This document shows positions 642 to 62,832 of a stretch of DNA of 64,000 nt, piece by piece. How positions within the stretch are numbered: the stretch's first letter is position 1; each line of letters begins with the position of its first letter. Position numbers and translations under genes: made by a program. The notes below the pieces were generated by a model. That model saw nothing but the letters and a program-made list of their open reading frames with translations. It searched no databases and was not told the origin of the DNA. The stretch comes from Dudresnaya verticillata. Its lineage: Eukaryota. The stretch lies in contig OZ374560.1 of assembly GCA_977862235.1 (NCBI GenBank), positions 2,046,001 to 2,110,000 of the forward strand. Reading direction: 5' to 3'.

Positions 642-819
642 GTTCAACACAAATTCAAAAACGCCCAAACGCAAGAAAGCAGACTACCGACAACCCCGCG
701 CTCCGACAAGATCCAACACGACGACGATTCCGACACAGAAGCCCCTGCTTACACGCCCCAGAAAGAGAAGTCCTCGTTTTTTCGTCGGTAGGGTCCGACC
801 AGCTCCTCTCGGACCCTAA

Positions 820-14659: not shown

Positions 14660-16067
14660 CGGAATTGCTGAGGAAGGCCCTGCAGGTGCTAGAGAAGTTC
14701 TCGCTATGCGCACGGCCTGCTTCCAAACTGTCTTTACCAAATCTCAGTCCCGGCCCGTTCGGTCGCTCCGTGTTTGGTACCGCTCCAAATCGGTTAGTGC
14801 AGCTCTACTACAACGAGGTGGGGCCTATCCGTAACGGTTCCAAGTACACCCTTATGCTAAAGGATGACCACTTGGAGTATGCTGTGTTTTCCAACAACCC
14901 ATGTGGTGCAAACCGTCCGTGACGGGTAGCACGTCCAGGTGCTCGGGGCCCGGCGGGTATTGTCGTCTAATGACGGTAGTCGTAGAGCGGATGAGCAACG
15001 CCACAGGGCGGACTGTAAACGCCCCAAGCGGAAAGTAGCTGAAACGAAAGGAAAAAGGAACAAAACCAAAAAGAAACACTTTCAGGAAACGGTGAGGAAT
15101 GTGGGAGGGCGGTGGGGCTGACGCATGGGCTTCAGGCTTCGGAGGAAGGTACGTGCTAGCGAAAAAGGGCATTCAGGTCCGGACCGGCTTAGACGAGTTT
15201 ACTGTGACGTCCTCAGACGAGCTCTCTAAGTAGCACTGCCAATAAACGTGCACATACGCATCGCGGCGAACGCGCGGTGTCCCAGGACGCGTGTCATCAC
15301 GCCGTGCGTATGAGAAGTTCCGTTGCGGTGCAGCCATAGTGCTAACAGATCCGCGCGGCGCCGCACGCAGTGCGCCCATGCTTACACCTACACGTGGCCA
15401 CGGGCGGCCCTTACAGTGTAGTTTCGCGATCAAATTGCGCACGTGCGTGATCCAGGTGTGCCCCGTCGTGCGCAAGCCCGTGTGTACCACGTGTACGCGT
15501 GTGGCCCCGTTTGCCTCGTCATCCACCTTCGGCATGTCGCTGCACCTGAGCCGCGCCGGATGTGGCCACGATTTGTAAGCCTGTGTCGGTTTCTTTCCGC
15601 GGAGCGAGCGGGTTCGCGCCAACGCCTGTTGGCGGTTACAAAAATGTCCCACGCCAAATGGCGGAAGAGGCCCGTCGTCAACGGTAACGACGCCAGCAGC
15701 GGTAGATTATATCCGGAGCGCCGCGCGTGGCTTGAACCACAACCCACACCGCCGAGGAAACAGCAGCAATATTTCTAATCGACTGGTGCGCTGCCTTCGG
15801 CGTTCCGTGCGAGAGGATGTCCGATGGACCTACGCACTTCAAAAATGAAGTACTCGGTTCGGTACCTACGGGCCTCAAGGCTCCTCATCAATTCACGCTA
15901 CCGTACTCCACGTGGAGCAACGGAGCAGTCGAGCGCCTGGGCAAGGAACTGCTCAACGTATTCCGATCCGCTTTTTCTGAACTTCAGACTCGTTTTGAAG
16001 AGTGTCCGGACATTTTACCGCTGGTGCAGAGTGAACTCCACAATGAGCCATCACCGTTACGGAAAAA
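14660..16067 (+). pseudogene. old gypsy integrase core, interrupted by a solo LTR
   Basis: KYTLMLKDDH before the insertion; DWCAAFGVP, MSDGPTHFKNE, YSTWSNGAVERLGKELL after it. Confidence 0.8.
14902..15741 (-). mobile_element. solo LTR (840 bp) related to the gypsy LTRs at 26486 and 40471
   Basis: Ends TGTGGTTCAAG...TTGCACCACA on the minus strand; 5-bp TSD ACCCA at 14897-14901 and 15742-15746; shares GGCGTTTACAGTCCGCCC and GACGTCACAGTAAAC blocks. Confidence 0.9.
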
Positions 16068-16860
16068 TGTGGTGCACGGGGTCAGCGCTTTTATTTCCTC
16101 GCCATGGGCGTATCAAGACCGCGTCGACCGACGGACGGTCGTCTGAAACGGCTCATTCGCCGTTGGCGCGAACACGTCAACGACGATTGGCCTACCGACG
16201 TGCGGGCGCCATCCCCGCACAACGCGCGCCCGACGCACTGTACGCCACAACGCTGTGGAGCGGATCTGGATGGCGCATCTGGATCAACGCGGTGTAAGGT
16301 GCTCGACTGTCAGCTCGGCCCGAATCCCGATCGAATCCGGAATCCAGATCGGACATCGGGATCTGCTGTAATGAAGGCGCACCTGTAATACTGCCGCCAA
16401 TGGGGATCGGAATCCGGATCGCCTACAGTACCGCGCAAGCGTGCTTCTGTAAGACGCGCATGGCGTCGTACAGCGGCTGCACCACCCCGCGATGTGTCAC
16501 ACACACCTCTACACGACTTGTATCCCGGGTTCCCGGGCTCTGCGTCATGCAGCCGCCGCGCCGCGGCCCCATAGCAACTACTTAGGTACCTCGTCTAGGA
16601 CGTAGCAGTAAACTCCCGGTAACCCGGTTTGGGTCTGCACTTCCCCTTTCGCATCGCGCGCACTCAACCGCTACCCGAAGGCCTAAGCGTCCGTCTACCC
16701 GCGCTTCCGCGTCCACTACCGTTCTGGACGTGTTTCTTTTTGGCGCTTCTTCCCCTTTCTACTGCAATTTGGGCGTCTACATGATGATGTAGAATGATAC
16801 GCCCCTGGCGTATCATTGCTCTACCACCACCCGTCGCCGACGCGCTATCCGCCGAGCTGA
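16068..16860 (+). mobile_element. 3'-truncated LTR of the same gypsy lineage
   Basis: Starts TGTGGTGCA; shares CGTCGACCGACGG, CGCCGTTGGCGCG-AACACGTCA, GGATCCGG-rich core and CTTAGGTA with the LTR at 26486; terminal CACCACA not found. Confidence 0.8.
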
Positions 16861-18036
16861 ACTAATCGGACGTGATATGTCCGACACGACAAAAAGCCTC
16901 GCCCCATCACTGCTTTCATCAGAGTGGAACCCACACCTCCTATCTCCAATTTTCTCTGAAACTGCCACTCCGATTACGATGGAACAAGCAAATCTTGAAG
17001 TATCTCGAAAAGCACCACCGAATGCGGCGCCAAAAACGAGACCCCAATGGACCAGGAAGACCGAGTGTATTCGGTAGAAAACTGACCGAACATAGAACGG
17101 ACCCACACGCCGGTAGCAAATGTTGTAGAGCGGGAGGCGAGCGGGCGAATTCGTGGCCAAATCTGCCATGAGGACAGAAAATGGCCAAGTTGGGAGTACG
17201 GTTGTTAACTTTACTCCCAAACTCTGGTGGGACGGCTTCGTACTTATTCTGTCCGAGACCTAGTGTGTGGCCGTCTAAGTAGACCTAAAATAGGCAATCT
17301 GAGCTAAGCTGGAGCTATTCTACAGTTATTGGCCGAGGTTACTCCCCGTCGGCCATAGTATCTACTTGTGTTCCGGCATCGAGCCAATACAAAGCCCTTT
17401 CGAGACTAAACAAAGTAATTGTGAAGCGTGGAAATAACGGGGGCCGGAACATGTGGGAGGGTGACCGGAGATAATAGTCGGTAGTGTAAGAGGGAGCGAG
17501 GAGGAGAAGTGGACCGTTCGAGTCTCATTACATTACACGACAGTGTTATGCGCATGACCGTTATTGCCAACGCCACCAGCCACCGCCGACCGTCGCTGCT
17601 GAAGTAAATGACTCAGCACTGCCAAATAGTGACAGCACCAGGGCGCATTCGCTGAGGGAGTGTAGTACGATGATGTGGCAAGTGGGATGTGCCACACGCG
17701 CCGCGTTACGCCAGCTGCGGCACCATGACCGTAAGACTGTCTTACAGAGTGGCGCGCACGCAATTTGCTGAGCGCCGCCGCCGCTGTGCTTCTCCCTCTC
17801 CAAGCTCCGAGCACACCCACGCTCGAGAGTATTGCCGAGCCGATTGCATGTCGTATTCCGGCACTCCGCAGGCGGTTGGTAAAGGTCGCTCCATGCGGGA
17901 GCCAAACGTTTGCATTCGTAACGGAGACGGTTTCCAACAGTAAAGACGAGGCGCAGAGCTATCCATAGCACCTAGAACAACGTTAGTTTCGCTCACAGTT
18001 GCAAGACATATGTGTCCGAAGCGGATCTGGCTTTTC

Positions 18037-24429: not shown

Positions 24430-25486
24430 ATATGCAGATTTTTATGCGGACGCAGAAGGCGCGAATGGTTTCCTGGAACCTTTACACGGAAGAGAGCTGT
24501 GTGGAAAACTTCCACAGGGCCGGGAAAAAGCCGTACAACCCGCGCAAGTACATTCGCGTTTCCCCCGACATTCTAGCTTTCCTGCCTCCCGTGCAGGAAG
24601 TCGCGGCGGGATACCCGGAAGCGAGGGAATAATATCTCAAGGAGTTGGAAGAGATACAGGCGGAGAATCTGGAAAACGACGTTCCCATCGAATGCCGCCT
24701 ATCCGAGATGGAAACTGCACGTGTCACTAATGGTGTTTATTCTCCAGGAGCTATACGAAGGCTGTCTCAGAAGGAGCGGAAATTTTCGAGGTGCATTCCG
24801 AGGAGTTCTGGGAGGGAAACTACTTTGGATCTGTTTCCTCCGGTTGGAGTGCCTCAGGCGATGAGGTGGATCTCAATCCAGATCTGCCGTCCGATGAATA
24901 TTTAGAGATTTTAGGTCGTAAGACAGATATGTCTCACGAAAACAAGTCTACTATTCCCGGTCAAGGTGGCGCTGGACCGTCTCGTGGATATGCGGGAGAT
25001 AATTCTGACTCTTCGGAAGATTCCTCCAGTTCTTCTTCGGAAGAACAGGTGCAGGAGGAGCAGGTGTACGAAATAGAATACAAGAGCAAGCATAGACCTC
25101 CCAGTGGGAAGGGCAAGTGCAAGAAATCGCGCCAGGAGAACCGATCGGGTCGTGCAGATCAGTCCGCAATGGATATATCTGATGACGACGATGACTCCGA
25201 CAAGGAGGATGCACCACTTCAGCCGAGAACCCCACAGAAGAACGTGTCGTCCCGCGCCGGCAGACACGGCGTTGATACAGCCGCAATTTCCCCGGCCTCC
25301 CTTCCAGACGAGGTGAAGCACGGAATGCCAGAAGCATTAGCGAGGGAGAGGGGACTATTGTCGGATTCAGGGGAAGGGTCGGGAGATGGACGTAACAGGG
25401 GCGAGGAGAGTGGGCAGGACAGCGATTACGTCGTGCGTGAAAAGGAATCTTCTTCTAGTTCCGAGGATGATTCCAAAAGCACTTAG
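24430..25486 (+). pseudogene. KDZ accessory gene C, acidic and low-complexity, disrupted
   Basis: ORF pieces 24192..24632, 24645..24905 and 24791..25486; divergent from the transposase. Confidence 0.5.
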
Positions 25487-26016
25487 GATACTCGAAGGGA
25501 GTGTAACTAGCTAGCTGCTAGTTCCGAGGATGCATCCTTGAATCAGGATTCCAAAAGCGATTAGAATGCTTGGATGGATTTTTGTGCAGAAGTTCCAATA
25601 GCTAGCTGCTAGCAGCGCATAAGTAATAGTGTTTGTTTGTTTGTTTATTTCGTGTGATTCGTTCTGACTTCAACTTTCCGCAGAAGCCATTACAGGGAAT
25701 ATGTTCTACATCATAAATGTTCTACATCATAAAAGTAGGAGGCGTGTTCTAGGACCATTATATCTAGGGCCATATGAGTCCCACACGCAGCGGGGGCTTT
25801 GTGCACAATCCTGTATAGAACCCGATGGGACACATATGTCTCAGAACTGTTGTAGGGTCATTGTATTCGTACAGAACATATAGATCCTGCTTTCAGGGAA
25901 GACTTCACATGCATCATAACTTCACAAACACATGGGACTTGTATGTCTTAGAATCTTTGGAAGCGTTCGCAATCCACAATGATCTACTTTGAGATGTATA
26001 TTAATGTTCTAGAACG

Positions 26017-26485
26017 TTAGTACACTTGAGAATTTTCAAGAGGCGCAGCTACTTCATGTTGCAGGCTCAGCAGCTCCTCCTTAGACATACGAGCCAGAAC
26101 TGCAGGCCCAATATTATCGCCGTTGAAGTCTGGCTTTCGACGCCCCCGGCTGGGAGTTGCTCCAGATCCGGACGGTTTCTTGATCCGCAGTGCCTGCAGC
26201 TCGGCTTCCGCCGTCTCCAACTTCCGAGCAACTTCCTCCTTCTCCAAGCGAGACTTCTCGATCTCCTGCAACATTTTTCCTTGCGGCTCCTGGTGGGATT
26301 CAGGAACAGCCCCCGGGATACAGAGAGTTGAGAAATTCGGTTCTGCAACGCTGCAGCGACGCGGCGTTCAACTTCCGCTTTCACTTTGGCCTCCAAGGCG
26401 CTATCGAAAATCGAGCCTTGCTTGTTGCCCGAGATTGGAACTGAAAAAGTACCCTTAGGGAACTTCTTCTGCAACGCAGCAATTT
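26017..26485 (-). pseudogene. 3' part of KDZ accessory gene D (coiled-coil tail), separated by the gypsy insertion
   Basis: Removing the gypsy at the AATTT TSD joins EIGNLRKQ to IAALQKKFPKG in frame. Confidence 0.75.
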
Positions 26486-27382
26486 TGTGGTGCAAGGGGA
26501 GGCGAGCCCTTTTTCGCTGAAAGCGGTCGGACTAAATACGTCGACCGACGGAGAAACCGCCACCGGCGCTCACCACCGCCGTTGGCGCGCGAACACGTCA
26601 TCGACGGCTTGCTGAGGCGCGCGCGCGCACTGCGCGCCGCGCGCCACGCGGGCACCGTACAGTGCTGGGCCGACCTGGCGCCTCGGGGCACTGTAGCGCG
26701 GATCCGGATGCGATCCGGATCCGGCATCCAGATTGCCTATCTGGATCGCCTAAGCTGTAAGGTATGCGCCTGTAAGGCTGCGGGTATCAGCATTGCTGGT
26801 CCGATCCGGATGGGATCAGGATCGGACAAGTACCAGATTAGATCTAAGGCACACGCTCTACAGTGCGCGCGCACGCGCGGCTGTAAGACACACGCGTCCA
26901 CGTGTACGTGTAAGCACCCACACAGGGGATTGTACGGCGATCTATCAGACGCGCGGCTGCATGCGACGCGTGATCTGTCAGACGCGCCTCGGGACGACAC
27001 GTGTCCCGAGTTCCCGCGCTACACGCACGCCGCCGCGCCGCCGTACTATACTTAGGTAAGCCGTCCCAGACGTCACAGTAAACGCCCAGGCAAGCCGGCC
27101 TTGGTCCAGACTTCCCCGTTCCGCACGCGCGCATTCTACCGCTGCCTACGGCTAAGCGTCTACCTCCCGTGCTTCCACGTCTACCATCGTCCTTGACGTG
27201 TTCCCTTTCTTTTTCCCTTTTCCTTCCTTTCCGCCTCGGGCGTTTACAGTCCGCCCAAGGCGTGCCCCTTTTGCTCTACCACCAAGTCGCCCACGGCGGG
27301 ACTACCTACCGCCGAGGGCGCAGCTACCCACCGAGCCCCGAACTGCTCGGCGGTCTATCGTCACTGGACGCTTTGCACCACA
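26486..27382 (+). repeat. 5' LTR
   Basis: One difference seen versus 40471-41367 (G26991/A40976). Confidence 0.97.
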
Positions 27383-27384
27383 TC

Positions 27385-27397
27385 TGGTCTCCCGACC
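27385..27397 (+). promoter_or_regulatory. primer binding site, possibly tRNA-Tyr
   Basis: TGGTCTCCCGACC 2 nt after the LTR; complement ends GGGAGACCA as in yeast tRNA-Tyr; primer identity is inferred. Confidence 0.65.
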
Positions 27398-27509
27398 TAG
27401 AAGCAGTGCTACGTTTCAACGAGTTTCTCCGTCGCGCGACGTCCGACTCTCCGTCTCTGACGTTTGTCGCGAATCGTCCACGACGTTCAAGCAACTCTAC
27501 GATTGTATC

Positions 27510-30074
27510 ATGGCCTCACGACCGCCGCCGTCGCGAGGCCCAAGTTCAAGAAGACCGTCTTCGACGCCTGGGAGTGTACCCGCGTCTGAACGGTGGTCGC
27601 TACAGCGGATGACAAAGAGGTCGGGGCGCCTCGTGAGCCCCGAGATCGCGTCGGCGTTCCCGACGCTACCCCCGGGCCACGGCCACGTAGGCTCCCGCGC
27701 GTCGCTCAACGGAGGAGAGTTACCTCCCCCGCCGACGCGCCACAACCCCGTCGTCGTCCGCGCCTCCGTCCCCGAGGGATCGGCCCTCCGCACCTACCGC
27801 TCCTACGTTGACTCGGCTGATACAGTACAAGCCGAGCAACAGGACGTCGTAGACGGAACACAAGCCGACATCGTCGCGGGACAACCGGAACTTCCGGATC
27901 AACCAACCATCCCCGTCAACGACGATCAAGCGCACTCTGCGGAGCGCAACGTCGCTGACGAACCATTGACACAAGGGGCATGTTGCCCCACTCCCCACGG
28001 CAGTGCCGGTTGTTCGCCGGCTAAGCCGAATTCGCCACGTCAAAGGGCGCAAGGGACGCCCGACCGGTCCAACGGCGAAAGCCAACCGCCAACGGCGTCA
28101 CCCTCGGCCGTCCGCGTGAGTAACTTAACGATACCACGCGAACGGATCCGAGAGGTGTGCGTCTTAGAGGACGATGCGATGCTCGCTCGGTTCGCCGGGT
28201 TGCTGGACGACAGTGTCGGAGGAATCGCAAGTCGTCTACAGACGTTGGAAGAGGATCGGAACGGCGCCCTACAAGGGCTACGCTCCGACCTCGACCGTCT
28301 ATTGACGAACCAAACCGCCCAAGGCGAGGGTACACAACCACCGCCGGCAGTAACGGTTCATTCGCATTCTGAGCTTAGCTCACGCGAACGCTTTCAGCGA
28401 CTTGCGACCCGCTTAGAGCGTCTCGAAACCGCCAAGTGGCGCAATGGTCCGCCGTCAGGTGACGAGAGCTCAGGCGAAGATCGTCACAGACGTAAGGACC
28501 GGAAGAAACGCCGTCGGAAGCTACGTCAGAGATGGAAGAAGAATCGTCATCGACGAGGGGGCTCATCCTCATCGTCTTCGGACTCGTCAAGTGACGGAGA
28601 GTCATCGGACTCTTCGTCTGAAGACGACGACTTCCCAACTCTCGGCAGTGCCGCAAGACCTCGCGGAAAGCGGTTCAAGGGGTTGAAGGAGCTACGCCCC
28701 TCCAACCCCCTTTTCGATCAGCTATTATCGCACCGGACTTACCGTCTCAAAGACGTAGGACAAAAACGCTCAGGGCGCGATACGGGCAAGGTCAAGGACA
28801 ACATTAAGCGACTGGAGCTGACCATGAAGGACGCCGCCTTCAACGGCAGCGACCCCGTCATGGTCCTCGAGTTCCTGACGCGTTACGCGGATGAAGCCGA
28901 TACGCTGGAGATGAGCGAAGCCCAAGCGTTCGTCGCGCTGCCGTACTTCTTGCGAGGTACGGCAGCCACGCAATTCCGCTCCGTCAAGTCGACGTCTTCT
29001 CGCCATCGCGGCGGGGTGTCTTCGTCCGGAGGCGGTACAGTACCTCCTCCGTACGTATGCTACGACAGCGGCGATCAGGGACACGGTCCTCGCCCTACGG
29101 TCGACTGACCAAAAGCAAGGCGAGGACGAGACGACCTATGGGATGCGGCTAGCCGGTGCGTGTATTCGTTGCGGTAACGTATATCCCGATTGGGAAAAGA
29201 TGACGCTGTACATCGACGGGTTAGACCCGTCGATCAGGTCCCTGGTCGCTCGCTTCCGAGAAGAAACGCCAAGGGCGGAGTTGTCATTTCAGCGGCTGGT
29301 CCACTTCGCACAGGACGAAGGGGATGCCAACCGCGCACGACACGGCAGAGCCGGTTCCACGTCAGCACGACGCGACTTACTGACACCAGCTCAAGCCGTA
29401 CGCACACCGCGATCCGCCATCGGCGATGCCCGAGGGGTACTGCGTCCACCGACGAGAGGCGCCAAGCCTGGAGCGCGCGCTATGATAGCGGAGTCCTCCG
29501 TCGAGTTCCGAGACGTAAGTCGCCCTGTCGATGACATGGAAACACACGCCGAAGGTGATTTGTACTTGGCAGACGAACAAGCGTCGGTGCCAACATCGGC
29601 CCTACCGACAGACAGCTTCGTCGATGACGAGGACGAAAGGGATATGGACCCTGCTCCGCCTTTGGGCGCTCGGTCGTACCAGCGCCAGGCGTCCCCTATT
29701 CCGAGTATGCTCCTCACGTCCACCGAGCAAGGCCCGGATGGCAGGACAGAGGCCCACCCCGTCAAGAAGCACGTCGGCAGCTGGTATGCCACCAATGCTA
29801 CGCCCGCGGACACATCGCGCCGGACTGCTTCCTCCGCATGAGCGACTTCATGAAGGTTATTACCAACTATGAAGGACTAACCGAAGCCGAGAAGGCTGGT
29901 GTCCCCGCTGATGCGTATGTACGTTGCAAGGAACGCGCGACTCGCGACGCTGCTCGCCGTGCTGCACGACCACAATTGCCACGGGGCGGACCCATGCCGC
30001 ACGCGGCCGAACGTCACCCGACGATGATCAACCGCTATGTAGCGCCGCAACCACCGCCGCAGGCGAAAAACTAA
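27510..30074 (+). pseudogene. gypsy gag with frameshifts
   Basis: FNGSDPVMVLEFL capsid-like motif; zinc knuckle CHQCYARGHIAPDC near 29785-29830 in the frame of 29838..30074. Confidence 0.85.
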
Positions 30075-33000
30075 CTCGGGCACCAAATCCTGACACTGGG
30101 GTGTCGCACCACGAAGAGAGGCCTAGGCCTCGGGTGCTGACACGGAAGGAGGGCCCGAAGTTAGTTACTGATGACGCCGACGGGCGGATAGAGTCGTCAC
30201 AGACGTCATAAAAACGCCCATGGCGAAGGTACCAACCCCCACAGGCGCGAGGACAGTTGTTCGTAATGGCCAAAAGGAACTATAAGGTGTACGCCGACAT
30301 CGGCGTAACCGTTAGTACCTTGGCACGTAAACTCACTGTCCTCGACACGGGGGCTGGTCCGAATTTCATTCGCATTGACGATATTCCGCTGGAAGCGCGA
30401 TCGCGCATCGTGGCAAAGAGCCTCCCCGTCATAGCCGACGCCAACAACAAGGCGATCCAGACAAGAGGCACCATCGACCTGGTCGTTCGTCTAGGTCTAG
30501 GACGGAGAGTCGTCAAGTTGGAACTGATCGTTTGCGAACGACTCGCTGCGCCGGTAATACTCGGCTGCGACTTTTGCGACCGCTTTGTCGAAGCAATATA
30601 TCCGCGAAATCGCGAGGTTGAATTGGATGACGGGACTCGTGTCCCTATAACCCGCCGCCCGCTGCGCCGACCCCCGTCGTATCCTCCGTTACCAACGGAA
30701 CAGGAATACGGCAAGGCCGATGGGAGGACGTCGCCCAAGATCCGAGTTGCCGAGCGCGCGATCATCCCGCCTAAGGCGCAGCAATGGGTATCGGTGACCA
30801 CCGAGCGCGCCGGCATCATCACAATGTAACCGTTCGGAACGCTGTACGACAAACAAGGTCTGGCCGTTACGAACGGGATTGCTCAAGTGGAGCCGCTAAA
30901 AGCGTTTCGCATTCTGGTTGCCAACTTCTCTCCCCGCCCGCAGGCGTTAGCCAAGGGCCAAGTCGTCGCGACGGTGTTACCACATCCGACAGCAGTGTTC
31001 CCCAGTCACGTAAGTCTAGCCGATGTTTTGGGCCTCACCGAGGAACAAGCCGAGGAAGAGAAGGCAAACCAAGATTTCCGTTTTCAAACGAATGATAACA
31101 CTGCGGCACAGCCGGATACTTTCACGAAGTCTATCAAGGAAACCACTGCCAAACCTCCGTCAGTAGACGATTTAGACCTTGGACATCTCCCCGCCGAGCA
31201 TCAAGGCCGACTCAAGGAGATGTTGCGCAAGTATTCGTCTATGTGGGACGGGTCGTTGGGAGAAATCTCAACCACGGAGCACTACATCGACTTGCTTCCC
31301 GGTTCTAGACCGATATCGTCCCCGCCCTACCGAGCGGGGCCGAAGCAAAGACAACTCGCTCAAGCGGAAGTGGACCGCATGCTGCGTCAAGGGGTTATCG
31401 AACCCGCACAATCGCCGTGGGCGTCACCTGTGGTCTTCGCCCCCAAGAAGGACGGGACCCTCCGCTTTTGCGTGGACTACCGTCGTTTAAACGCAGTAAC
31501 CATACGGGACACGTACCCGCTGCCGCGTATCGACGAATGCATCGACAGTCTAGGGGAAGCAAACGTCTTCACCACCCTAGACTGTAACAGTGGGTACTGG
31601 AAAGTGCCGATCAATCCGCGAGACCGCGATAAGACTGCGTTCACGTGCCACGCCGGACTGTTCCGCTATAAGCGTATGCTATTCGGTCTCACGAACGCAC
31701 CCGCTACGTTTCAACGAACGTTGGACATCCTGCTCGCTGGTTACAAATGGCGTTCGTGCCTCGTCTACCTCGATGACGTAATAATCTTCTCCAGCGACAT
31801 CGACAGCCACTTCCGTCATGTTGACGAGATCCTTTCGACATTGCACCGCGCCGGGGTGACTCTGAAGTTAACCAAGTGTGACTTCTTCACCCCGACCGTC
31901 AACTACTTAGGACACGTCATACGTCCAGGACGGTTAGAAGTTGACCGAACTGTCACTGCCGCGCTACGCGAAGCCAAGCATCCACGGGATCAGAAGGAGC
32001 TACGGAGTTTTCTCGGTCTTTGTAACGTCTACAGACGGTTCGTCTCGCGATACGCGCATGTCGCTGCCCCCCTCAACAAGTTGCTGAGGAAGGAACAGGA
32101 CTTCCGGTTACAACCGTTTGATGAGACACAAGCCAAAGCGTTCAGTACGCTCGTCGAGGCCGTGACTCATCCGCCTATACTGGCGCTACCACAGCAGGGT
32201 CTCCCCTATTCCGTCGATTGTGACGCAAGCGAGTATCAGGTCGGCTGCGCTCTCTTTCAGACGCAGCCCGACGGGGAACGTAAGCCGCTCGGCTTCTGGT
32301 CCCGCTCGCTCACCGCTCCGGAGCGTAACTACTCGGTCTCCGAAAAGGAGTGCCTCGCAGTAGTATGGTCCGTCATGACGCTGCGACCTTACCTCCAGAT
32401 GGAGTCGTTCACAGTCCATACGGACCATTCGTCGTTGAGGTGGCTGATGGAAATCAGCGACCCCTCTGGACGGTTAATGCGGTGACGCCTTCGCCTTTCC
32501 GAGTTCGACTTTGTCGTGAAGTACAAAAAGGGGTACCTGAATACCCAGGCAGATGCCCTTTGGCGTCTATAGACGAAGGGAGAAACCGTCGAGCCCATTG
32601 ACGATGATATACCGTGCTACCACGGAAGCTACGTCGAAGACGGCCATCAAACGTCACAGGACGATCTGTCAGACGCCGAAGGCGAGGTCGACTTTGCCGA
32701 ACGAGAGTTCGAAGAGTTCGACCAAGTGTTGATCAACAACACGCCACCGGCGGATGCGGTACTCCTTCGTCAAGTGACGCATGAGGAGTTGGTACACGCC
32801 CAAGGCGATGACAAGTACTGTAACGATGTCAAGAAACGTCTGGATGACGGAATCATATTGCCGTTCGCAACGGACGAACAGGGCCTGTTGGTCCGAACAG
32901 TGGAAGTCCGTCCGCAAGTGGTCGTACCCTCCGCGTTACGCGCTCGCTTACTCCACCTCCGGCACCACGCCAAGTTGGCAGGGCACCCAGGGGGGCGTAA

Positions 33001-34798
33001 GTTGTATCATACGCTTCGACGCGAATACTATTGGCCATCGATGCCAGTGGACTGCTATGCGACCGTCCGCAACTGCGTAACTTGCGCTAAGAATCGCGTA
33101 TTACTACGAAAGAACACCAAGCAATTGAAGTTGTTCCCGGCAACCGAGCCTCTCGAGTTTGTATCGATCGACATCCTGGGCGAATTCATACGCACGAAGC
33201 GAGGAAACAAGTTCCTACTCGTCATTGTGGACCGCTTCTCGAAGCTGGCCCGGACGGTCCCACTGCGTAGTATTACGGCATTGGAGATCGCTAAAGCGTT
33301 TGTACGACATTGGGTCTTCGTGTACGGTCCTCCCAAGAAACTGTTGTCCGACAACGGACCACAGTTTGTGGCTAAGCTGTTTCAGGATATCTGCCGTCTG
33401 TTGGGATTGGAGAACCTCTTCACCACGACGTACCATCCGCAATGCAATGGCCAGGTAGAACGATTTAATCGAACTATCCTGGCCTCGCTGCGTCACTACG
33501 TTGCGGATCATCCGAGAGACTGGGACCTGTTCACGGATGGCTTGACGTTCGCATACAACACACAGTTGCATTCGTCTACGCATCTCGCTCCGTTTGAATT
33601 GGTGCTGTCGAAGCCACCACGACCATTGTCGCTCGAAGCGGAACCGTCGCTCGAAAGCGTACCCACCGCGGGGCAATACTACACCAAGTGGCGAACCTGG
33701 CTGGCCGCACTGATGGGAACCGCTAAAGCGTCGTTAGAGAAAACTCAAGCACGTTACAAACGAAACTTCGATACCCGATTAAGGAAATCGAAGGAAACAA
33801 TCGCCGTAGGCGACTTCGTATTCGTACGTAAGGAATACTTCGCCCGAGGCTAGAGCACGGATCGCGCAGAGCGTAAGCATAAGCTGGCGCCAGTGGCGGA
33901 CGGACCATACCGGGTAACTGACGTTGATAACGAGACAGTAACCGTCGACAAGGGACGTGATGAGCGGGAACGTTTGTCCCGAGACCGCGTGGTCTGGGCG
34001 CCGACCCCACCGGGTCAGGCGTCCCCTCCAATCGTCGTACCACCAGGCCCGCCTGAGGAGCAGGACGCAGTCGCCCCCACGTCACAAGACGAAGGGACAA
34101 CTACCCCAAGCACGCCACCAGCGGACCCGGAGGGGGACGCAGAGACTTCGCATATTGCGGGAGATCCGCAAGAGCGTACGATCACAGCGTCACGCAGTCG
34201 TGGGTTGGCAGAGCTTTCGCCCTTCGCCGCCGATCCCAACGACCGCGCTTCGCAATCCTTCCCCAACGACGACAGTACCCCAGGGGTTCGCACCCGTTTG
34301 GAACACGTCACTACGGCACCGCCGAATGAGAACAATGACTCCGCTGAAAGCGCATCCGATAACGAAGACGTTATCCGTGCAAGCACGAAGCAAGGCGCTA
34401 AAAGCGATGAACTCGTCTCAAGACGCAACAATCCACTGACCGCTGATCGAGCGTCCGAGGCCCAAGGCCAACACCTTCGGCGATCAACTCGTCGAGTACG
34501 CTTCGCCGAGCCGGAACAGACGCCCATCACGCAACGAGACAAACCGCCAAAGGCGCTGGACAGGCCCGCGTCCAAGCCGAACGCTGTGAGCGGAACAGAA
34601 TACGTGATCGAACGCATAGAGTCGCACGCATACGCGGGTGATGATGAGATCCTCTACCGCGTCAAGTGGTTTGGATGCCCCTCTTCAGCGAACACCTGGG
34701 AGCCAGTCTCCAGTTTGCCGCGCTCCCACGTCACACGATACCACCGTCTCAAACGTATGCAGCTGCCGCCAAACGTCGACGACGCGCAACGCGGCTAA
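30071..34798 (+). pseudogene. gypsy pol: protease, RT, RNase H, integrase, chromodomain; five in-frame stops
   Basis: LDTGAG; RFCVDYRRLN; YLDD; CDASEY; GHPG..CVTC; SIDILG; SDNGPQF; NGQVERFN; YRVKWFG..NTWEP; stops at 30209, 30827, 32483, 32568, 33851. Confidence 0.95.
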
Positions 34799-36068
34799 CC
34801 CTAGTCCGGAAATACCGCTGGAAGCGAATGGACGGACGATCGAGCCCACGTGCTCGACCTACGATCGACAACGGCGCGGAAGCTCAACCCATGCCCTGTG
34901 GACGCGGTCGAAGGAGCGACAGCGCCAACCACGCGTGCACGCCATGGACGAACGGGGACGCAAGTCGTTGCGTCATAGACAGCCTCGCGCCGCCACCTCG
35001 CAGCAGCCCCCATACGGAACTTCTAGATGGGTGCGCTGTTGACAGTGGATCCAGATCGCAAATCGAGATCCGCCGCCGGCGACCCTCGGGTAATATGAGG
35101 CAGTAATTGGCCCAATTTTAATTTCCAAACACAGCAGCGCGCACCACCCCGCCGTCAACGCAGGACGAACGCAATTATGCCAAGTGGCTGAGCAGGTGCT
35201 ACGAGCCCCAGCGACGACAGGCGCAAAGTGGCAGCCCACGACAACCGTCTCCGACGTCGAGACGTGCCTCGCCCCACGGCCAAGGCCCTGGGACCGCCAC
35301 CCTGCCGGCCACGGTCTCGCGCGCAAGACCCGTCGAACGTCTCCGACGTAACTCGCCGAGAAGGGGCGCACTGACAAACCCACCCCCGAAGGGGGGGAAG
35401 GTGGTCGAAGACGCAGTTGCTGCAGGTTCCGTGCACGACGCGCCAACAAATCGCCAACGACTCCGCCGCTGCCTGCAGCCGCCGCGCCGCAGTCGCGTGA
35501 GCGCGACAACTCTACCCTACCCCCAAGGAGGCACGTCGAAGACGAAGGTGGCGGCAGCGCCAAGGCGTCAAAACCTACCTCACCGCCTTCGCGACCCTCG
35601 TAGAGGACGCCGGCAAACCACGCCCAAGGCGCAGTGCGACACACGCATTACAAAAACGCTAAGTAAGCGTAAATACGACAACGCCACGCGTGAACCACGA
35701 AGAACAACGCTACTACAGCGGACCCTACTGGACAAACACAGCCAAGTGCCAACGCACGGCCAAGGCTAAAGGCATCAAACGACAGCGCTACTGTAGCGGA
35801 CAACCAAGAACACGACGCAAAGTCGAAAGTGGATCACAAGGTTACACCCTAAGGCCAACGCGAAACGCGACACATAAAGACGCTGACAATGGCCGAAGTT
35901 TACTGGGCTAAAGACAAATGGGGAAAACCCCTCGCCCTAGCGATTGACCACTACAGGTACATTAATCGTCAAAGACGAAGGAGAATACTCCGCTCGTCGC
36001 TCCAGCAAAGGAGCCGAAGGGGCAACACAATACGCACCTCGCGTCCGCTACCCGTTCCTGAAACGACA

Positions 36069-38372
36069 TCAAGACTCCTTCGTCGCAGACGAATCGGCTG
36101 GCACGTCCCCAGCGCCTTCGGCGGACTTACGCAACGCCTCTTCGTAGAGGTCTTCCTCCGTCGTTGACGGCACACTCACGGCAGGAGCCGGGGCGGATCG
36201 CAAAGGCCTTGCCACCGCAACTGCCGGAGCGGCTGCAACAGGCGCCGCAGGCGAAGTGGGAGACTCATCAATCGCCTTGGGCGTCGTCGCGACAATATCC
36301 GCCAAAGGCGATGAAGCAATAACACCCGCCACAGGCGCAGAGCCTAAGCTACCATTCGCCTTAGGCGCGGGCACAGCCCCATCCGCTTTAAGCGTACTCA
36401 ACGACTCGTCGACCGCCTTTGGCGTCAATTCAGAAACCGCCTTGGTTGGCGTCGCTTCTTCACTCGCCTTCGGCGTTGTTAATCCGACACCCGTCAATGA
36501 CGCAGGAGCACTTAGCCCCTTTTGAACCGTCGACGACGCTACAGTGGCATTCGCCTCGCTCGCCGCAGGCGGTACAGTCATATTCACGTCCTTAGACGCC
36601 GGACCATTCGCCTTAGGCGACGAAGGCTTCTCCGCCACACCGTCCTTCGACGCAGAACCTACGACACTAGTCGACTTCGGTGCGGGTCCACCCTGAGGTG
36701 GGACCGTAGCCGACAAAGCTTGGCTCATCCACTCAGTGGGTGAGCCGCTCAAACCGCTAGTAGCGACGCCTGCCGCCTGCAATAACGCAAGCACGGTGCG
36801 GCGCTGTTCTTCGGTCCAAACCGGCACCGGAGCTGGACCCCCAGAACCGTCTGCGACGCTTGATGCTTCGCCTTGAGGCGTCACGGTCGGCGGAGCCGGC
36901 TCAAGTATTGGCGTCACCATAACGGCATCGCCATCACCGTCAGCGACGGGAGCCGCAAGGTCCAGAGGAGCAACAGCTGGCAGGCCAGCTGGCACTCCAC
37001 CGCCACCGACAGCGCCTCCGGGCAAAGCCGAAGACGCGGGCACAGGCTCGGCAGTCGACTCAACCGCCATAGGCGTAGCAATGTCCGTCCCAGACGGGTT
37101 CTCCGGTCCGCCATCGGCGTTAAACGCATCCTCCTCGGCCATTAAGGCGCTCAGATGCGGAGGAAAATCACCGACAAAGTCGCAGCTCTTACGCAAACCA
37201 CGCGGGTGATTACCTGGGGTGAAGCGGTCCGTTTTGCGATGGCGCTCCGCAATGTTCTTCGTCGTACGACGCTTAGTCCACGGGTTATAATGGACCCAAT
37301 CGCCACAGGCGGAGTGAGTCCGACTCATCGCGAATCGCGGACGGTTCGCCTTACGGCGGTTGTTTGCATACGGCACCATTGCCGGGTCGTTCCAGTCAAT
37401 CTCATTCGCCACCGCGCGCAGGTTCGAGAACTCCTCGGCGTTCCGGGACCCGCCAAATATTTCGACCAAGTCGAGGCTGCCAAGCTGAGCCACCACACGC
37501 GGGGGCAAGTGGTACATACGGAAGGTGTCATACACCTCCCATAACCACGCATACGCCACATTGGCGACCCACTCCGTGTAAAACACGATCCAATGCCTGG
37601 AATAGGGGTCGGTCATCAGCTCGGAACCCAGATACGTAACACACGGAGGAAGCTCTACGGAGAAACCCTCGCATATCTCAAACTCGCGCCACACTGGCGG
37701 TACCTTCACGAAACAAAACGGCAACTTACTACGCTCAATGCGGTCAACCTGCATGTCCTGGTAAGGCACGAATACGCCCTTTCGGCGACGCGTCTCGCAC
37801 TCCCACCGGATACAACGCTCCCAAAAGAACGTACCCGTACGATGCAGGTAACGAAAATCCGCATTCAAGCGTACGCCTAAGAGGTAGGCCTCTCCCAACA
37901 CACGAGGCTCAATCGACACGCTCACATGTTTGAGCGACAACGTCCCAAGAAGAGCACCATATTCGGCTTCGCCGGCTGTGCGGTATTGTCCCGCATCATA
38001 ATTGAACAGGGGCGGCGTTAACGTCGACCCCGGATAACGCGTGAAGCGACGATACACGTCTGAGACGAACTGCGCGTGGACGTCCGCACGCGACTGTCCC
38101 GCTCGCACCCAAAGCCATTCTGCAGGAACGGCACAGAGTGACTTCCATTCCAACGTCCAGACGACGCCGAGGGGCAAGCCCCCCGGCAAGAAACCGCTAG
38201 TAGCGTAATGAGCAACTAATTCTTCCTCGCGCAAGGCCTCTTGGTCGAACCAGGGGGCCCGCGCGAAGAAGTGCGCGTGATCGCGAGGGTTCTTTCCGAC
38301 GAAGTCGACCGGCGAAGCGTACACCGGCGCAGCCGAAGATGCTGCCACCTGCATGCCATTGAACATCGGCAT
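36069..38372 (-). CDS. intact 767-aa antisense ORF of the gypsy element, unknown function
   Basis: Open ATG-to-stop ORF between pol and the PPT; aromatic-rich N-terminal ~400 aa, Ala/Pro/Ser-rich tail. Confidence 0.85.
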   Translation of the reverse strand: MPMFNGMQVAASSAAPVYASPVDFVGKNPRDHAHFFARAPWFDQEALREEELVAHYATSGFLPGGLPLGVVWTLEWKSLCAVPAEWLWVRAGQSRADVHAQFVSDVYRRFTRYPGSTLTPPLFNYDAGQYRTAGEAEYGALLGTLSLKHVSVSIEPRVLGEAYLLGVRLNADFRYLHRTGTFFWERCIRWECETRRRKGVFVPYQDMQVDRIERSKLPFCFVKVPPVWREFEICEGFSVELPPCVTYLGSELMTDPYSRHWIVFYTEWVANVAYAWLWEVYDTFRMYHLPPRVVAQLGSLDLVEIFGGSRNAEEFSNLRAVANEIDWNDPAMVPYANNRRKANRPRFAMSRTHSACGDWVHYNPWTKRRTTKNIAERHRKTDRFTPGNHPRGLRKSCDFVGDFPPHLSALMAEEDAFNADGGPENPSGTDIATPMAVESTAEPVPASSALPGGAVGGGGVPAGLPAVAPLDLAAPVADGDGDAVMVTPILEPAPPTVTPQGEASSVADGSGGPAPVPVWTEEQRRTVLALLQAAGVATSGLSGSPTEWMSQALSATVPPQGGPAPKSTSVVGSASKDGVAEKPSSPKANGPASKDVNMTVPPAASEANATVASSTVQKGLSAPASLTGVGLTTPKASEEATPTKAVSELTPKAVDESLSTLKADGAVPAPKANGSLGSAPVAGVIASSPLADIVATTPKAIDESPTSPAAPVAAAPAVAVARPLRSAPAPAVSVPSTTEEDLYEEALRKSAEGAGDVPADSSATKES

Positions 38373-38397
38373 GACGTCAACGACGAGAATATGTTAA

Positions 38398-38757
38398 CGC
38401 CAAGGGCGATGCTTGTACGAACGTCAAAGATGACTCGTGTCCTGCGCCACTGGCGAAAGCTTCAAGAAGCGTGCGTCGAAGACGATTACTGTTGCAACGC
38501 CTTAGGCGAGGAAAGGAAACCCACGTCAACGACGTTCAGCTGCTGCGCCAACGGCGATGCCAAAAGCAAACGACGTCGAAGACGACTACTGTTGCGACGC
38601 CTTAGGCGAGAGAAGGAAACCCGCGTCAACGACGTTTGACTGCTGCGCCAATGGCGATGCCGAAGGCAAACGACGTCGACGACGATTAAGTTGCAACGCC
38701 CCAGGCGAGGGATATACGATAGACGTCAACGACGGAGCTCGTTATGCGCCACAGGCG
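38398..38757. repeat. tandem array with ~50-bp periodicity (~100-bp higher-order unit) carrying eight CGCC-N3-GGCG sites
   Basis: Sites at 38398, 38445, 38498, 38546, 38598, 38646, 38697, 38747. Confidence 0.9.
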
Positions 38758-38966
38758 GTGAGGTCGGGGCAGCGTACGCAGCCGCACGAGTACGCAAACG
38801 CAACAAGAGCGGAGTTCTTACGGCACAGCCGAGGTCGCAGTCGCACGCGGCGCACCAATACAATACGCGAAGGCGCGGGGACTCGCTCGCAAGGCGCGGA
38901 AGTCGGCAGGGACGCAACGGCAGAACGCACGGCAGCAGGTTGACGGTCGGGTCGTGTTCGCGTTTT

Positions 38967-39008
38967 GGAGGGGGGTCGTGTGGTGCAAGGGGAGGCGAGC
39001 CCTTTTTC
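38967..39008 (+). other. polypurine tract plus first ~30 bp of the original 3' LTR
   Basis: GGAGGGGGG then TGTGGTGCAAGGGGAGGCGAGCCCTTTTTC starting at 38979. Confidence 0.9.
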
Positions 39009-41367
39009 CTCCAGTTCTTCTTCGGAAGAACAGGTGCAGGAGGAGCAGGTGTACGAAATAGAATACAAGAGCAAGCATAGGCCTCCCAGTGGGAAGGGCA
39101 AGTCCAAGAAATCGCGCCAGGAGAACCGATCGGGTCGTGCAGATCAGTCCGCAATGGATATATCTGATGACGACGATGACTCCGACAAGGAGGATGCACC
39201 ACTTCAGCCGAGAACCCCACAGAAGAACGTGTCGTCCCGCGCCGGCAGACACGGCGTTGCTACAGCCGCAATTTCCCCGGCCTCCCTTCCAGACGAGGTG
39301 AAGCACGGAATGCCAGAAGCATTAGCGAGGGAGAGGGGACTATTGTCGGATTCAGGGGAAGGGTCGGGAGATGGACGTAACAGGGGCGAGGAGAGTGGGC
39401 AGGACAGCGATTACGTCGTGCGTGAAAAGGAATCTTCTTCTAGTTCCGAGGATGATTCCAAAAGCACTTAGGATACTCGAAGGGAGTGTAACTAGCTAGC
39501 TGCTAGTTCCGAGGATGCATCCTTGAATCAGGATTCCAAAAGCGATTAGAATGCTTGGATGGATTTTTGTGCAGAAGTTCCAATAGCTAGCTGCTAGCAG
39601 CGCATAAGTAATAGTGTTTGTTTGTTTGTTTATTTCGTGTGATTCGTTCTGACTTCAACTTTCCGCAGAAGCCATTACAGGGAATATGTTCTACATCATA
39701 AATGTTCTACATCATAAAAGTAGGAGGCGTGTTCTAGGACCATTATATCTAGGGCCATATGAGTCCCACACGCAGCGGGGGCTTTGTGCACAATCCTGTA
39801 TAGAACCCGATGGGACACATATGTCTCAGAACTGTTGTAGGGTCATTGTATTCGTACAGAACATATAGATCCTGCTTTCAGGGAAGACTTCACATGCATC
39901 ATAACTTCACAAACACATGGGACTTGTATGTCTTAGAATCTTTGGAAGCGTTCGCAATCCACAATGATCTACTTTGAGATGTATATTAATGTTCTAGAAC
40001 GTTAGTACACTTGAGAATTTTCAAGAGGCGCAGCTACTTCATGTTGCAGGCTCAGCAGCTCCTCCTTAGACATACGAGCCAGAACTGCAGGCCCAATATT
40101 ATCGCCGTTGAAGTCTGGCTTTCGACGCCCCCGGCTGGGAGTTGCTCCAGATCCGGACGGTTTCTTGATCCGCAGTGCCTGCAGCTCGGCTTCCGCCGTC
40201 TCCAACTTCCGAGCAACTTCCTCCTTCTCCAAGCGAGACTTCTCGATCTCCTGCAACATTTTTCCTTGCGGCTCCTGGTGGGATTCAGGAACAGCCCCCG
40301 GGATACAGAGAGTTGAGAAATTCGGTTCTGCAACGCTGCAGCGACGCGGCGTTCAACTTCCGCTTTCACTTTGGCCTCCAAGGCGCTATCGAAAATCGAG
40401 CCTTGCTTGTTGCCCGAGATTGGAACTGAAAAAGTACCCTTAGGGAACTTCTTCTGCAACGCAGCAATTTTGTGGTGCAAGGGGAGGCGAGCCCTTTTTC
40501 GCTGAAAGCGGTCGGACTAAATACGTCGACCGACGGAGAAACCGCCACCGGCGCTCACCACCGCCGTTGGCGCGCGAACACGTCATCGACGGCTTGCTGA
40601 GGCGCGCGCGCGCACTGCGCGCCGCGCGCCACGCGGGCACCGTACAGTGCTGGGCCGACCTGGCGCCTCGGGGCACTGTAGCGCGGATCCGGATGCGATC
40701 CGGATCCGGCATCCAGATTGCCTATCTGGATCGCCTAAGCTGTAAGGTATGCGCCTGTAAGGCTGCGGGTATCAGCATTGCTGGTCCGATCCGGATGGGA
40801 TCAGGATCGGACAAGTACCAGATTAGATCTAAGGCACACGCTCTACAGTGCGCGCGCACGCGCGGCTGTAAGACACACGCGTCCACGTGTACGTGTAAGC
40901 ACCCACACAGGGGATTGTACGGCGATCTATCAGACGCGCGGCTGCATGCGACGCGTGATCTGTCAGACGCGCCTCAGGACGACACGTGTCCCGAGTTCCC
41001 GCGCTACACGCACGCCGCCGCGCCGCCGTACTATACTTAGGTAAGCCGTCCCAGACGTCACAGTAAACGCCCAGGCAAGCCGGCCTTGGTCCAGACTTCC
41101 CCGTTCCGCACGCGCGCATTCTACCGCTGCCTACGGCTAAGCGTCTACCTCCCGTGCTTCCACGTCTACCATCGTCCTTGACGTGTTCCCTTTCTTTTTC
41201 CCTTTTCCTTCCTTTCCGCCTCGGGCGTTTACAGTCCGCCCAAGGCGTGCCCCTTTTGCTCTACCACCAAGTCGCCCACGGCGGGACTACCTACCGCCGA
41301 GGGCGCAGCTACCCACCGAGCCCCGAACTGCTCGGCGGTCTATCGTCACTGGACGCTTTGCACCACA
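39006..41367 (+). repeat. direct duplication of 25021-27382 (upstream flank plus LTR)
   Basis: Constant offset of 13985; four substitutions seen; TTC microhomology at the junction. Confidence 0.97.
40471..41367 (+). repeat. complete right LTR
   Basis: Matches 26486-27382 and is followed by the AATTT TSD. Confidence 0.97.
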
Positions 41368-43132
41368 AATTTGCTTGCGAAGGTTGCCAATTTCTTCGTC
41401 CCTCGAATCCTTCTTGGCCTTCTTTCTCGCGGAGGGAACAACCTCGTCGCCTGTGTCCTCAACTTCTCCCTCCTCTTCATTTTCCTCGACGCGGCGGCGC
41501 TTTTTACCCTTCTTTGAGCCTTCTGGGACAGATATGTCCTGAATCCGGTCTGCCGGTTCTTGGCCACAGAGTGGGACAGATATGTCCTGGCTCTCATCGG
41601 ATGGCCCGCGGGCCACTACCGCATCAGCAGGAGAAGTGGAAGCGACGTTCGCATCGGGGCCCTTGTCGAGGGCTCCAAAGAGGTTTTCGAGATCGATGAC
41701 ATCGTTTTCCTTCTTGAAATCTACGCGCTTGGACGACCTTGCAGCAATAGGCAGCGCGCCTGCGCCGCCCTGAGCGCCTGGGTACATAAGTTGCCCCGTG
41801 GGCGGTAGTTGAGGGAGCCGGGGCGGCTGTGATTTCTTCGTCACTCTCGAGGGTGAGGTCCACAAACGCAAGGGCTTGTTCCACCGCCGGCTTGGGAACT
41901 GGTGCAGACACCTTCTTTACAACTTTGGTCTTCTTCTTCTTACCAAACTTCTTGACCTTCTTGACCTTCTCGGTGACTGTCTCCTTGCGCATACGTGAAG
42001 TGCGCTCCTCGCCCTTCTTGGCCTGACGACACAACCTGGCTCGGCGCCTGCTATCAGTCTCGTCAAACCACGCGCGAAGGTTGTTGTTGTTTGAAGAATT
42101 GAAATGCTGCGTGAAAAACAGCGTGTTCTTCCAAGCGAAGTTCTGCACGTTGTGGTCGTTCTTCTCCAACGACCGTTGGCAAAACGTCAAGACCAGCTGG
42201 ACATACTTCGGGTCCAGCTGGCCAGTGTAGCCAATGTACGTCTCGAGGAATTTCGGGAACTTACGAACCGACTCCCAGTAAAGGAAGGCATCGAGGACGG
42301 ATGTCCTATTGCCGAGTTCCGGGATGATGTGGGACAAACATGTCGCAATGAGAGCGTAGCACCCCAACAGCAACCTGTTCATATGTCTCGGAATGTCAGA
42401 GAAATGATACAGGAAGTGGTTCCTCGAGTGGTCGTCCTTTCCAAATGCTTGGTAGATGATCTCGTCGTTCTCATCCTCGACGTCTTCTACATTTTCCTTC
42501 TTGTTTCGGCGCTGTCGTTCGGCACCTGCGCGTCCGGCACTCGCAACCTCTTCTCCCATCAACTTCTCCTGAAGGAACCGGTAACCTCCGTAAACCTTGC
42601 CATTGACTCCTGCCGCCTTCGTATTCGGAATAGAGTGGTCGCTGTCGACAAGCGTACGCACCAGGACAACTTGCTGAAGCGGTGTGGAGGGAGCGGGAGA
42701 GACATCTTGGGTATTTCCGACGATGATGAGAAACTTGACAGCCCTGTAGAAACGTTGCCTAACTGTATGTTCCGTCTGCGACACACGCGGCTCCTTGTTC
42801 TTCACTGCGTAGGAGACGCTGAGAAGTTCCGCACGGGTGATGAGAAATGCGTACAGGGTGTCCAAGCAGCTGTCTCGCGCGGAAACGACGGGATGATTTC
42901 CAGCCGTGACATACTCTGGGACATATACGTCTTGCCCATCACAGTTGAAGATAGGCTCCGTCACAACTATCGGATCGCACCGGCGGAAACTCTCGACAAA
43001 CATGCGGTCCGAGAGAGACAACGCGCGGAACCTATCCACGGGACGAATGAGCATGTCGAACCCGGGAAAGTGATCGATGAACCGAACCGCGTGCTTTACC
43101 TGGCTCCGATGGCGAACGGCCTTCATCACCAT
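41368..43132 (-). pseudogene. 5' part of KDZ accessory gene D, unknown function
   Basis: ATG at 43132 (MVMKAVRH) within ORF 41624..43543, shifts frame into 41287..41871; globular N-terminal part, Lys-rich NLS-like tract, acidic tracts. Confidence 0.75.
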
Positions 43133-62759: not shown

Positions 62760-62832
62760 CACCTCCCGCGGGGCTCGAACCCGCGACCAACAGATTAAGA
62801 GTCTGTCGCTCTACCGACTGAGCTAGGGAGGC
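62760..62832 (-). tRNA. tRNA-Lys(CTT)
   Basis: GCCTCCCTAGCTCAGTCGGTAGAGCGACAGACTCTTAATCTGTTGGTCGCGGGTTCGAGCCCCGCGGGAGGTG folds as a cloverleaf; no encoded CCA. Confidence 0.97.

Follow-up and report, generated by a model that had tools for sequence, protein, structure and literature searches.

Short inverted repeats stud a chromodomain-bearing Ty3/Gypsy retrotransposon of Dudresnaya verticillata and are densest upstream of its antisense reading frame

According to the accessible parts of PMC5735166, the VANC21 protein of the Arabidopsis VANDAL transposons targets a fixed, non-palindromic 9-mer (YAGTATTAY) that lies mainly in non-coding DNA and in one orientation, and the density of this motif directs the protein. 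Antisense ORFs accompanied by 3' tandem arrays have been described for the Retand/Tat, Grande and RIRE2 retrotransposons, and DNA binding has been proposed; the available portions of both sources report no element-wide palindromes (PMC11963269, PMC7264820). The maize Sireviruses Ji and Opie carry about seven copies per LTR of one 17-bp consensus palindrome which, in the available sections of PMC4728375, is confined to the cis-regulatory regions of these Copia elements. Further accounts deal with palindromes at insertion sites (PMC6911290), with a single hairpin in place of a primer site (PMC5445492) and with red-algal repeat content (bioRxiv 10.1101/2025.02.11.637652), and to the extent of their accessible text none of the three presents an element-wide code. 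A literature search covering titles and the beginnings of abstracts, mostly outside subscription journals, found no description of an element-wide mini-palindrome code.

The element analyzed here shares traits with all three of the former systems, as far as the accessible parts of the respective papers describe them. Like VANDAL/VANC, it has a dense, short, family-specific motif amplified by tandem repeats and an accessory gene combining a conserved domain with a variable, repeat-containing region. Unlike VANDAL, which is a DNA transposon family, it is an LTR retrotransposon, and unlike the VANC targets its sites obey a rule of arm complementarity and form covarying palindromes that fill coding DNA. 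It resembles Retand/Tat, likewise Ty3/Gypsy, in carrying between pol and the 3' LTR both an antisense ORF and a tandem array that is family-specific, but Retand is a non-chromovirus of flowering plants with TRP28 (PF04195), whereas the integrase found here bears a chromodomain and the antisense domain is unrelated. With the Sireviruses it has in common repeated LTR-retrotransposon palindromes whose structure is kept while their sequence varies among families, with arms more conserved than the centre and with sites also near an extra gene; it differs in being Gypsy and in having about 190 sites of 11–12 bp, with free arm letters, through all genes. By analogy, the code would work like VANDAL self-marking and is placed like the antisense ORFs with arrays of Retand, and it belongs to neither system.

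The retrotransposon is located in a 64,000-nt stretch of contig OZ374560.1 (hereafter the window), and its features are as follows in window coordinates:

26486..38978, element counted as one LTR plus interior, 12.5 kb
26486..27382, plus strand, 5' LTR of 897 bp (TG...CA) with AATTT before it; 12 sites with 3-nt (N3) and 5 with 4-nt (N4) spacer
27510..29841, plus strand, gag-like region in two frames
30266..34798, plus strand, pol with protease, reverse transcriptase (RT), RNase H, integrase and chromodomain (Pfam)
36069..38372, minus strand, antisense ORF of 767 aa, consisting of an N-terminal domain of about 390 aa and a low-complexity tail
36069..37139, minus strand, low-complexity tail, the second-densest patch with 22 sites, 17 of them in one codon frame
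37140..38372, minus strand, conserved N-terminal domain, whose DNA holds 9 sites
38375..38757, tandem array of 15 perfect mini-palindromes 22–29 bp apart, with a 100-bp unit and a 50-bp sub-period
38965..38978, plus strand, purine-rich tract, PPT-like by sequence, abutting the start of the 3' LTR
38979..39008, plus strand, first 30 bp of the 3' LTR, joined with a 3-nt TTC overlap to the duplicated flank
39006..40470, plus strand, copy of the 1465-bp upstream flank (25021–26485) with 3 differences
40471..41367, plus strand, second full LTR with 1 difference from the first and AATTT on either side

The order of protease, RT, RNase H and integrase, followed by a C-terminal chromodomain, identifies a chromodomain-bearing Ty3/Gypsy element. 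The Pfam matches of pol comprise a weak RVP (E 0.079), RVT_1 (6.5e-33), RT_RNaseH (6e-30), rve (3e-13) and Chromo (1.7e-9), and the AATTT target-site duplication that precedes the first and follows the last LTR is that of an LTR retrotransposon. The copy in the window is broken, because gag shifts frame near 29100 and pol carries four internal in-frame stops (30827, 32483, 32570, and 33851). Its rearranged 3' end (38979–41372) reflects either a tandem duplication that includes a solo LTR or the merging of two alleles during assembly. Named relatives of the RT include Agarophyton chilense proteins with 56–69% identity, which points to a red alga as the likely host. The region 26400–41400 had no match in Rfam.

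An earlier note on this DNA had singled out the array upstream of the antisense ORF as eight phased palindromic sites. The eight CGCC-N3-GGCG sites (38398, 38445, 38498, 38546, 38598, 38646, 38697, and 38747) and their claimed spacings of 47, 53, 48, 52, 48, 51 and 50 bp were reproduced, and the proposed tandem unit of about 100 bp was recovered by TRF (38474–38710, 2.4 copies, 86%, 50-bp sub-period). The "GACGTC cores" mentioned in that note are real but describe incompletely what is a second palindrome set of the same kind, CGTC-N3-GACG, seven copies of which (38375, 38474, 38524, 38574, 38624, 38674, and 38724) alternate with the eight CGCC sites, with an additional imperfect site at 38422. 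Likewise, the distance of 26 bp from the antisense ATG (38372) is correct for the first CGCC site, but the array itself starts only 3 bp away. The observation that the motif is kept while its flanks diverge was confirmed quantitatively: between neighbouring 100-bp units the motif columns differ at 0/32, 0/32 and 1/32 positions and the non-motif columns at 11/68, 33/66 and 29/63 (Fisher p 0.015, 1e-7, and 6e-6). Motif positions are thus better kept than the remainder of the repeat unit, contrary to the outcome by which the earlier note would have been refuted. Phasing on the DNA helix was not recovered, as the mean spacing of 49.9 bp corresponds to 4.75 turns at 10.5 bp per turn and R is 0.20 for the eight sites and 0.10 for all 15; a period of exactly 10.0 bp is the only one with high coherence, and it restates the 50-bp unit. 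The suggested tandem-repeat route of motif amplification agrees with the 15 of 137 N3 sites that lie in the 100-bp repeat region, and the parallel to VANDAL, understood as self-marking in which motif density counts, is fair in the sense of "works like".

The array had been interpreted as an operator or enhancer for regulation of the antisense gene by its own product. Consistent with such a role, site density peaks just upstream of the ATG at 38.7 sites per kb (element average 11.0; outside the array 10 per kb), the 15 sites in 388 bp surpass the best 388-bp window elsewhere (12 sites, in the antisense-ORF tail), and the non-coding gap between pol and the antisense ORF has only 7 sites per kb. 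The conserved motif columns point in the same direction, and no minus-strand ATG occurs in the 606 bp from the LTR to the antisense start codon (38373–38978; 3.8–6.1 expected), so that a long antisense leader may include the array. However, the first site is only 3 bp away from the ATG, which makes transcription of at least part of the array probable, 122 of the 137 sites are located elsewhere, including RT and integrase codons, and the helical phasing is missing. The relatives L085, L080, L015 and L040 have no palindrome tandem array upstream of the antisense ORF. A dedicated operator for autoregulation of the antisense gene is improbable on this evidence.

The flagged array does not stand alone: about 190 very short inverted repeats are scattered over the whole retrotransposon, genes included, and the array is the place where they are most closely packed. 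Sites of the form CG-xy-N3-y'x'-CG number 137 in 26486..38978, compared to a mean of 10.5 and a maximum of 18 in 100 dinucleotide shuffles; sites with N4 spacers (54 vs. 10.9) and N5 spacers (30 vs. 11.4) are also in excess, while the flanks contain 16 and 9 N3 sites (shuffle means 6.7 and 7.1). They span LTR, gag, pol and the antisense ORF. In gag, protease, RT-RNase H, integrase and both halves of the antisense ORF they exceed 500 synonymous-codon shuffles, in all three frames, which rules out codon or amino-acid bias as their source; the Copia ORFs and two host ORFs of the same window showed no excess over such shuffles. The Copia-like element (635–4241) is broken, has no palindrome excess and served as internal control. 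Two solo LTRs in the window belong to related families:

16069..16900 (right end approximate), plus strand, solo LTR whose family is related and shares the code; 6 N3 and 3 N4 sites
14901..15700 (upstream end approximate), minus strand, solo LTR from a second related family with a preference for the 4-nt spacer; 6 N4 and 1 N3 sites

In aligned LTR sites of the related families, CGCC..GGCG and CGTC..GACG as well as N3 and N4 have been exchanged in place.

The two arms of a site covary. The most frequent arm types are CC/GG (43), TC/GA (35), CT/AG (14), GC/GC (11) and CG/CG (10), seven types reach at least six sites, and hybrids between the CC and TC types number 1 and 0; the symmetric share of arms is 0.80, compared to 0.23 expected under independent arm pairing. 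Wobble variants are not in excess, and pairing just beyond the arms is avoided (24 of 191 sites vs. 48.5 expected, p 2e-5). With the array excluded, site centres 11.5–18 bp apart are depleted (3 vs. 16.5) and those 18–24 bp apart are enriched (44 vs. 14.8). Flank preferences are dyad-symmetric: sites avoid G at –1 and, correspondingly, C at +1, and they favour A at –3 and T at +3; since they are mirrored out to 3 bp they define a 17-bp site, which matches the exclusion distance. The 18-bp exclusion and the symmetric flanks support the view that the motif behaves like a site read by a protein. The CpG excess of the element (345) is accounted for by the CGs of the sites, whose ends hold 435 CGs, about 66 of them by chance. 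A pure link to CpG methylation was rejected, as the families L085 and L086 use arms starting with C-T and have a CpG o/e of 0.95–0.98.

Symmetric sites without hybrids would also be obtained if several sequence-specific homodimers, for example antisense-ORF paralogs from sister families, recognized one B-form palindrome each and the element collected the sites of all of them. The strong bias in arm letters and the diversity of the protein family (946 clusters at 50% identity) are compatible with this idea. It would, however, require at least seven readers in the window element and dozens in L085/L086, it does not account for orthologous sites that change type in place, and subclades with long stems do not fit, making it quite unlikely. 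The lack of hybrids and the swapping of letters and spacer at orthologous sites would instead suggest a single protein that reads shape.

For comparison with relatives, 158 loci (the L-numbered loci) were retrieved with an RT profile, many of them on contigs of eukaryotic type within metagenomes or bacterial bins. Gypsy contigs inside bacterial genome bins (L080–L090, L130, and other loci) probably reflect host contamination. Filtering for hits of at least 240 aa and 43.5% identity left 67 loci, which together with the window gave 68 rows for a quick RT tree. The clade of interest comprises 61 rows including the window (the long-branch L047 was left out); these are related and several share assemblies, so that the following counts are not independent. 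Perfect 4-bp stems with 3–6-nt spacers show an at least 1.8-fold excess in 30 of the 61 rows, the window counted, and a ratio of 1.25 or less in 14; the seven rows not counted in the clade range from 0.94 to 1.32. One subclade of 11 rows (SH-aLRT 98) has no stem excess (0.82–1.20). The geometry in relatives has a sharp limit at 4-bp arms, and the letters are family-specific: L085/L086 use C...G with a GA, TC or TA centre and keep only the outer C-G fixed, and L080/L081 have a GC spacer centre. L031/L038 lack the spacing exclusion, whose peak varies by family. A fixed positional map across the clade was rejected, as window sites match those of relatives in 0–3 of 20–26 cases (random means 0.3–1.6); close families do share site positions (21/50 and 30/95). 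An excess of CGAC-N2-GTCG was also seen in the more distant L135–L138, L140, L141 and L144 (RT 33–34% identity), most of which in addition have an excess of TCGA-N4-TCGA, and may be due to tandem repeats.

Between families at 9–11% divergence, stem substitutions occur at 0.58 of expectation in two families, with controls at 1.04 (each pair counted both ways), and the two closest families have 109 vs. 188 and 205 vs. 356 expected substitutions in stems. The stems of related families are under purifying selection. G-T or A-C changes are no better tolerated in the stems of two families than others. Compensatory double changes in the two closest families do not exceed chance (4 vs. 3.8 and 7 vs. 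9.3), which argues against templated repair, yet gives no positive covariation signal at this divergence; in three deeper family pairs, 10 of 60 same-register sites show compensated arm changes. These numbers bear on the proposal that the palindromes are a functionless mutational by-product, arising when template switching in reverse transcription perfects quasi-palindromes. Such copying would yield wobble-free, strand-symmetric stems everywhere, and the long stems of L087–L089 are indeed abundant and not conserved. But it predicts many compensatory double changes, whereas stem substitutions are missing without them, and it leaves the CG ends, the avoided extension and the 18-bp exclusion unexplained. 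We regard a purely mutational origin as very improbable; what is observed is an element-wide, selected, symmetry-defined code.

Sister subclades deviate from this geometry by long, irregular stems of 7–15 bp with loops of up to 40 nt. Perfect, wobble-poor stems of this length tile gag-pol in L087 (whole), L083, L084, L088 and L089, stems of 6 bp are in 3–6-fold excess in L083, L084 and L087, and the long stems are not conserved (L087–89 0.97, L082/83 1.01). They are an argument for a function on single strands, according to which wobble-free hairpins fold both sense and antisense strands (genomic RNA, antisense RNA, and cDNA) and hinder sense-antisense annealing or single-strand attack, or serve as dispersed signals for packaging or handling by Gag or RT. 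Folding of both strands needs perfect pairing, L087 reaches a folding z of about –4 on both strands, and the element has an antisense gene, antisense transcripts being able to feed dsRNA silencing according to the accessible text of PMC7264820. Yet the array folds no better than shuffles as plus-strand RNA (z –0.20; minus strand z –2.64), stems avoid extension, which is the opposite of selection for stability, GG and GT arms do not occur in spite of their stability, and the fixed 18-bp exclusion with its dyad-symmetric flanks points to a reader. Action on single strands is a possible explanation that we consider doubtful.

The stems are mostly strand-symmetric, with some strand bias. Folding z-scores are equal on both strands, G-U pairs are below the shuffled level in stem-rich loci, the spacer centres of L085/L086 are GA in 42 and TC in 44 of 168 cases, and the top spacers of L086 are reverse complements of each other. 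Bias is seen in the spacers of the window, which are A-rich on the plus strand (p 0.04; 0.12 without the array), and in those of L009 (C:G 71:27, p 0.0003), and A-C near-stems outnumber G-T near-stems in many loci. Strand symmetry, the lack of wobble and the failure of the array to fold as sense RNA favour a strand-blind signal at the DNA level, and we infer from these sequence features that the signal resides on DNA and not on the genomic RNA. The 4-bp hairpins are weak, their predicted probability averaging 0.35 under DNA and 0.26 under RNA parameters, and cruciforms of this size are not known to extrude without help.

Motifs spread through coding DNA are known from other systems. HIP1 of cyanobacteria and the DNA uptake sequences are single fixed sequences that are over-represented genome-wide through coding DNA in all frames, and in RNA viruses with genome-scale ordered RNA structure local fold-back potential pervades the coding sequence, in synonymous sites. 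The present code is similar to the former in that a short motif or palindrome is enriched throughout coding DNA, but follows a symmetry rule limited to one transposon clade. With the genome-scale ordered RNA structure reported for RNA viruses in the accessible parts of PMC7642675 it shares pervasive local fold-back through coding sequence and in synonymous sites, but it differs in that both strands fold equally, G-U is under-used and the geometry in the window is fixed at 4-bp arms.

A protein encoded by the element itself could act as reader. The N-terminal domain of the antisense protein has a confident, mostly helical model (AF2 pLDDT 91) with a basic stretch at residues 331–400 (17 K/R, 4 D/E), and the low-complexity tail encodes five PKA-type peptide repeats. 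The N-terminal 390 aa or so define a family of 946 clusters (50% identity, E of 0.001 or below), none of the ten clusters looked up having a name. Pfam contained no family for the antisense ORF or 14 homologs, PF04195 being absent from the ORF at E 0.1, and the best hit in a PDB sequence profile search had an E of 0.17. At E 0.001 Foldseek had no match in PDB or BFVD, the best of 48,161 chains compared by VIA-align reached Z 2.6 (rmsd 3.6, 60 aligned), and the ESM Atlas gave no usable match; as the domain was folded and searched as a whole, the absent structural match does not show a new fold. Neither scans of viral contigs with antisense ORF and RT nor a search among longer proteins revealed a relative, lengths of 721–805 lying outside both protein searches. 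In these Pfam and fold searches no link to VANC emerged.

Homologs of the antisense ORF are present in 15 of 20 loci with at least 46% RT identity and 4.5 kb of downstream sequence, where the hits in L034 and L075 are probably part of adjacent elements, and in 1 of 27 more distant loci, which itself falls inside the clade. By this distribution, the protein marks the clade. The closest homolog among the loci (L019, 5505–7580) is in sense orientation downstream of pol. Four loci of the stem-less subclade (L004, L018, L022, and L049) keep homologs, and the antisense ORFs of the stem-rich L002 and L040 have no detectable homology, so that the ORF is neither sufficient nor clearly necessary for the stems. 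Provided that a protein reads the code, the antisense protein is the leading candidate, with the chances for and against it about level.

The explanation we prefer, and hold with roughly even confidence, is that a protein recognizes the element-wide mini-palindromes on DNA in the form of small hairpins or cruciforms and marks the element as self. The code consists of 4-bp complementary arms closed by CG around a 3–4-nt spacer, distributed over the whole Ty3/Gypsy element. At each site a reader with an inferred footprint of about 18 bp would contact the closing bases and the flanks, and the avoided outward pairing would fix the junction. Coating could then, by analogy to VANC, mark the element as self and shield it from host silencing. 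The tandem duplication may have created a high-avidity landing pad beside the antisense gene rather than a dedicated operator; local feedback on that gene would be a possible side use. The long irregular stems of the sister subclades count against this explanation, since a protein with a fixed footprint cannot explain them.

A further-reaching version is put forward only tentatively and is more likely to be wrong than right: the genes of a red-algal retrotransposon clade would carry a self/non-self barcode spelled in hundreds of 4-bp inverted repeats, and a protein of new fold encoded by the element would read the mini-cruciforms by shape and coat the element against silencing, with family dialects of closing bases, spacer length and spacing. 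Known self-marks of transposons, such as the VANC targets, have a fixed sequence and stay away from coding DNA, whereas a symmetry-defined mark can enter any gene via synonymous codons and change its dialect without losing function. If true, this would be a novel way for a transposon to distinguish its own DNA from that of its host. The code also offers a first concrete, testable candidate ligand for an antisense retrotransposon ORF, a class described in the available portions of PMC7264820 and PMC11963269, and the findings draw attention to a large protein family that has no name, is modelled with confidence and matched nothing in the searches.

Outside the retrotransposon, the regions 21169–23744 and, on the minus strand, 40002–43132 of the window contain pieces of Cys/His-rich ORFs, which we take to resemble a KDZ/CxC-type transposase, together with a minus-strand reading frame that the LTR insertion interrupts. 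A tRNA-Lys(CTT) gene is located at 62760–62832 on the minus strand.
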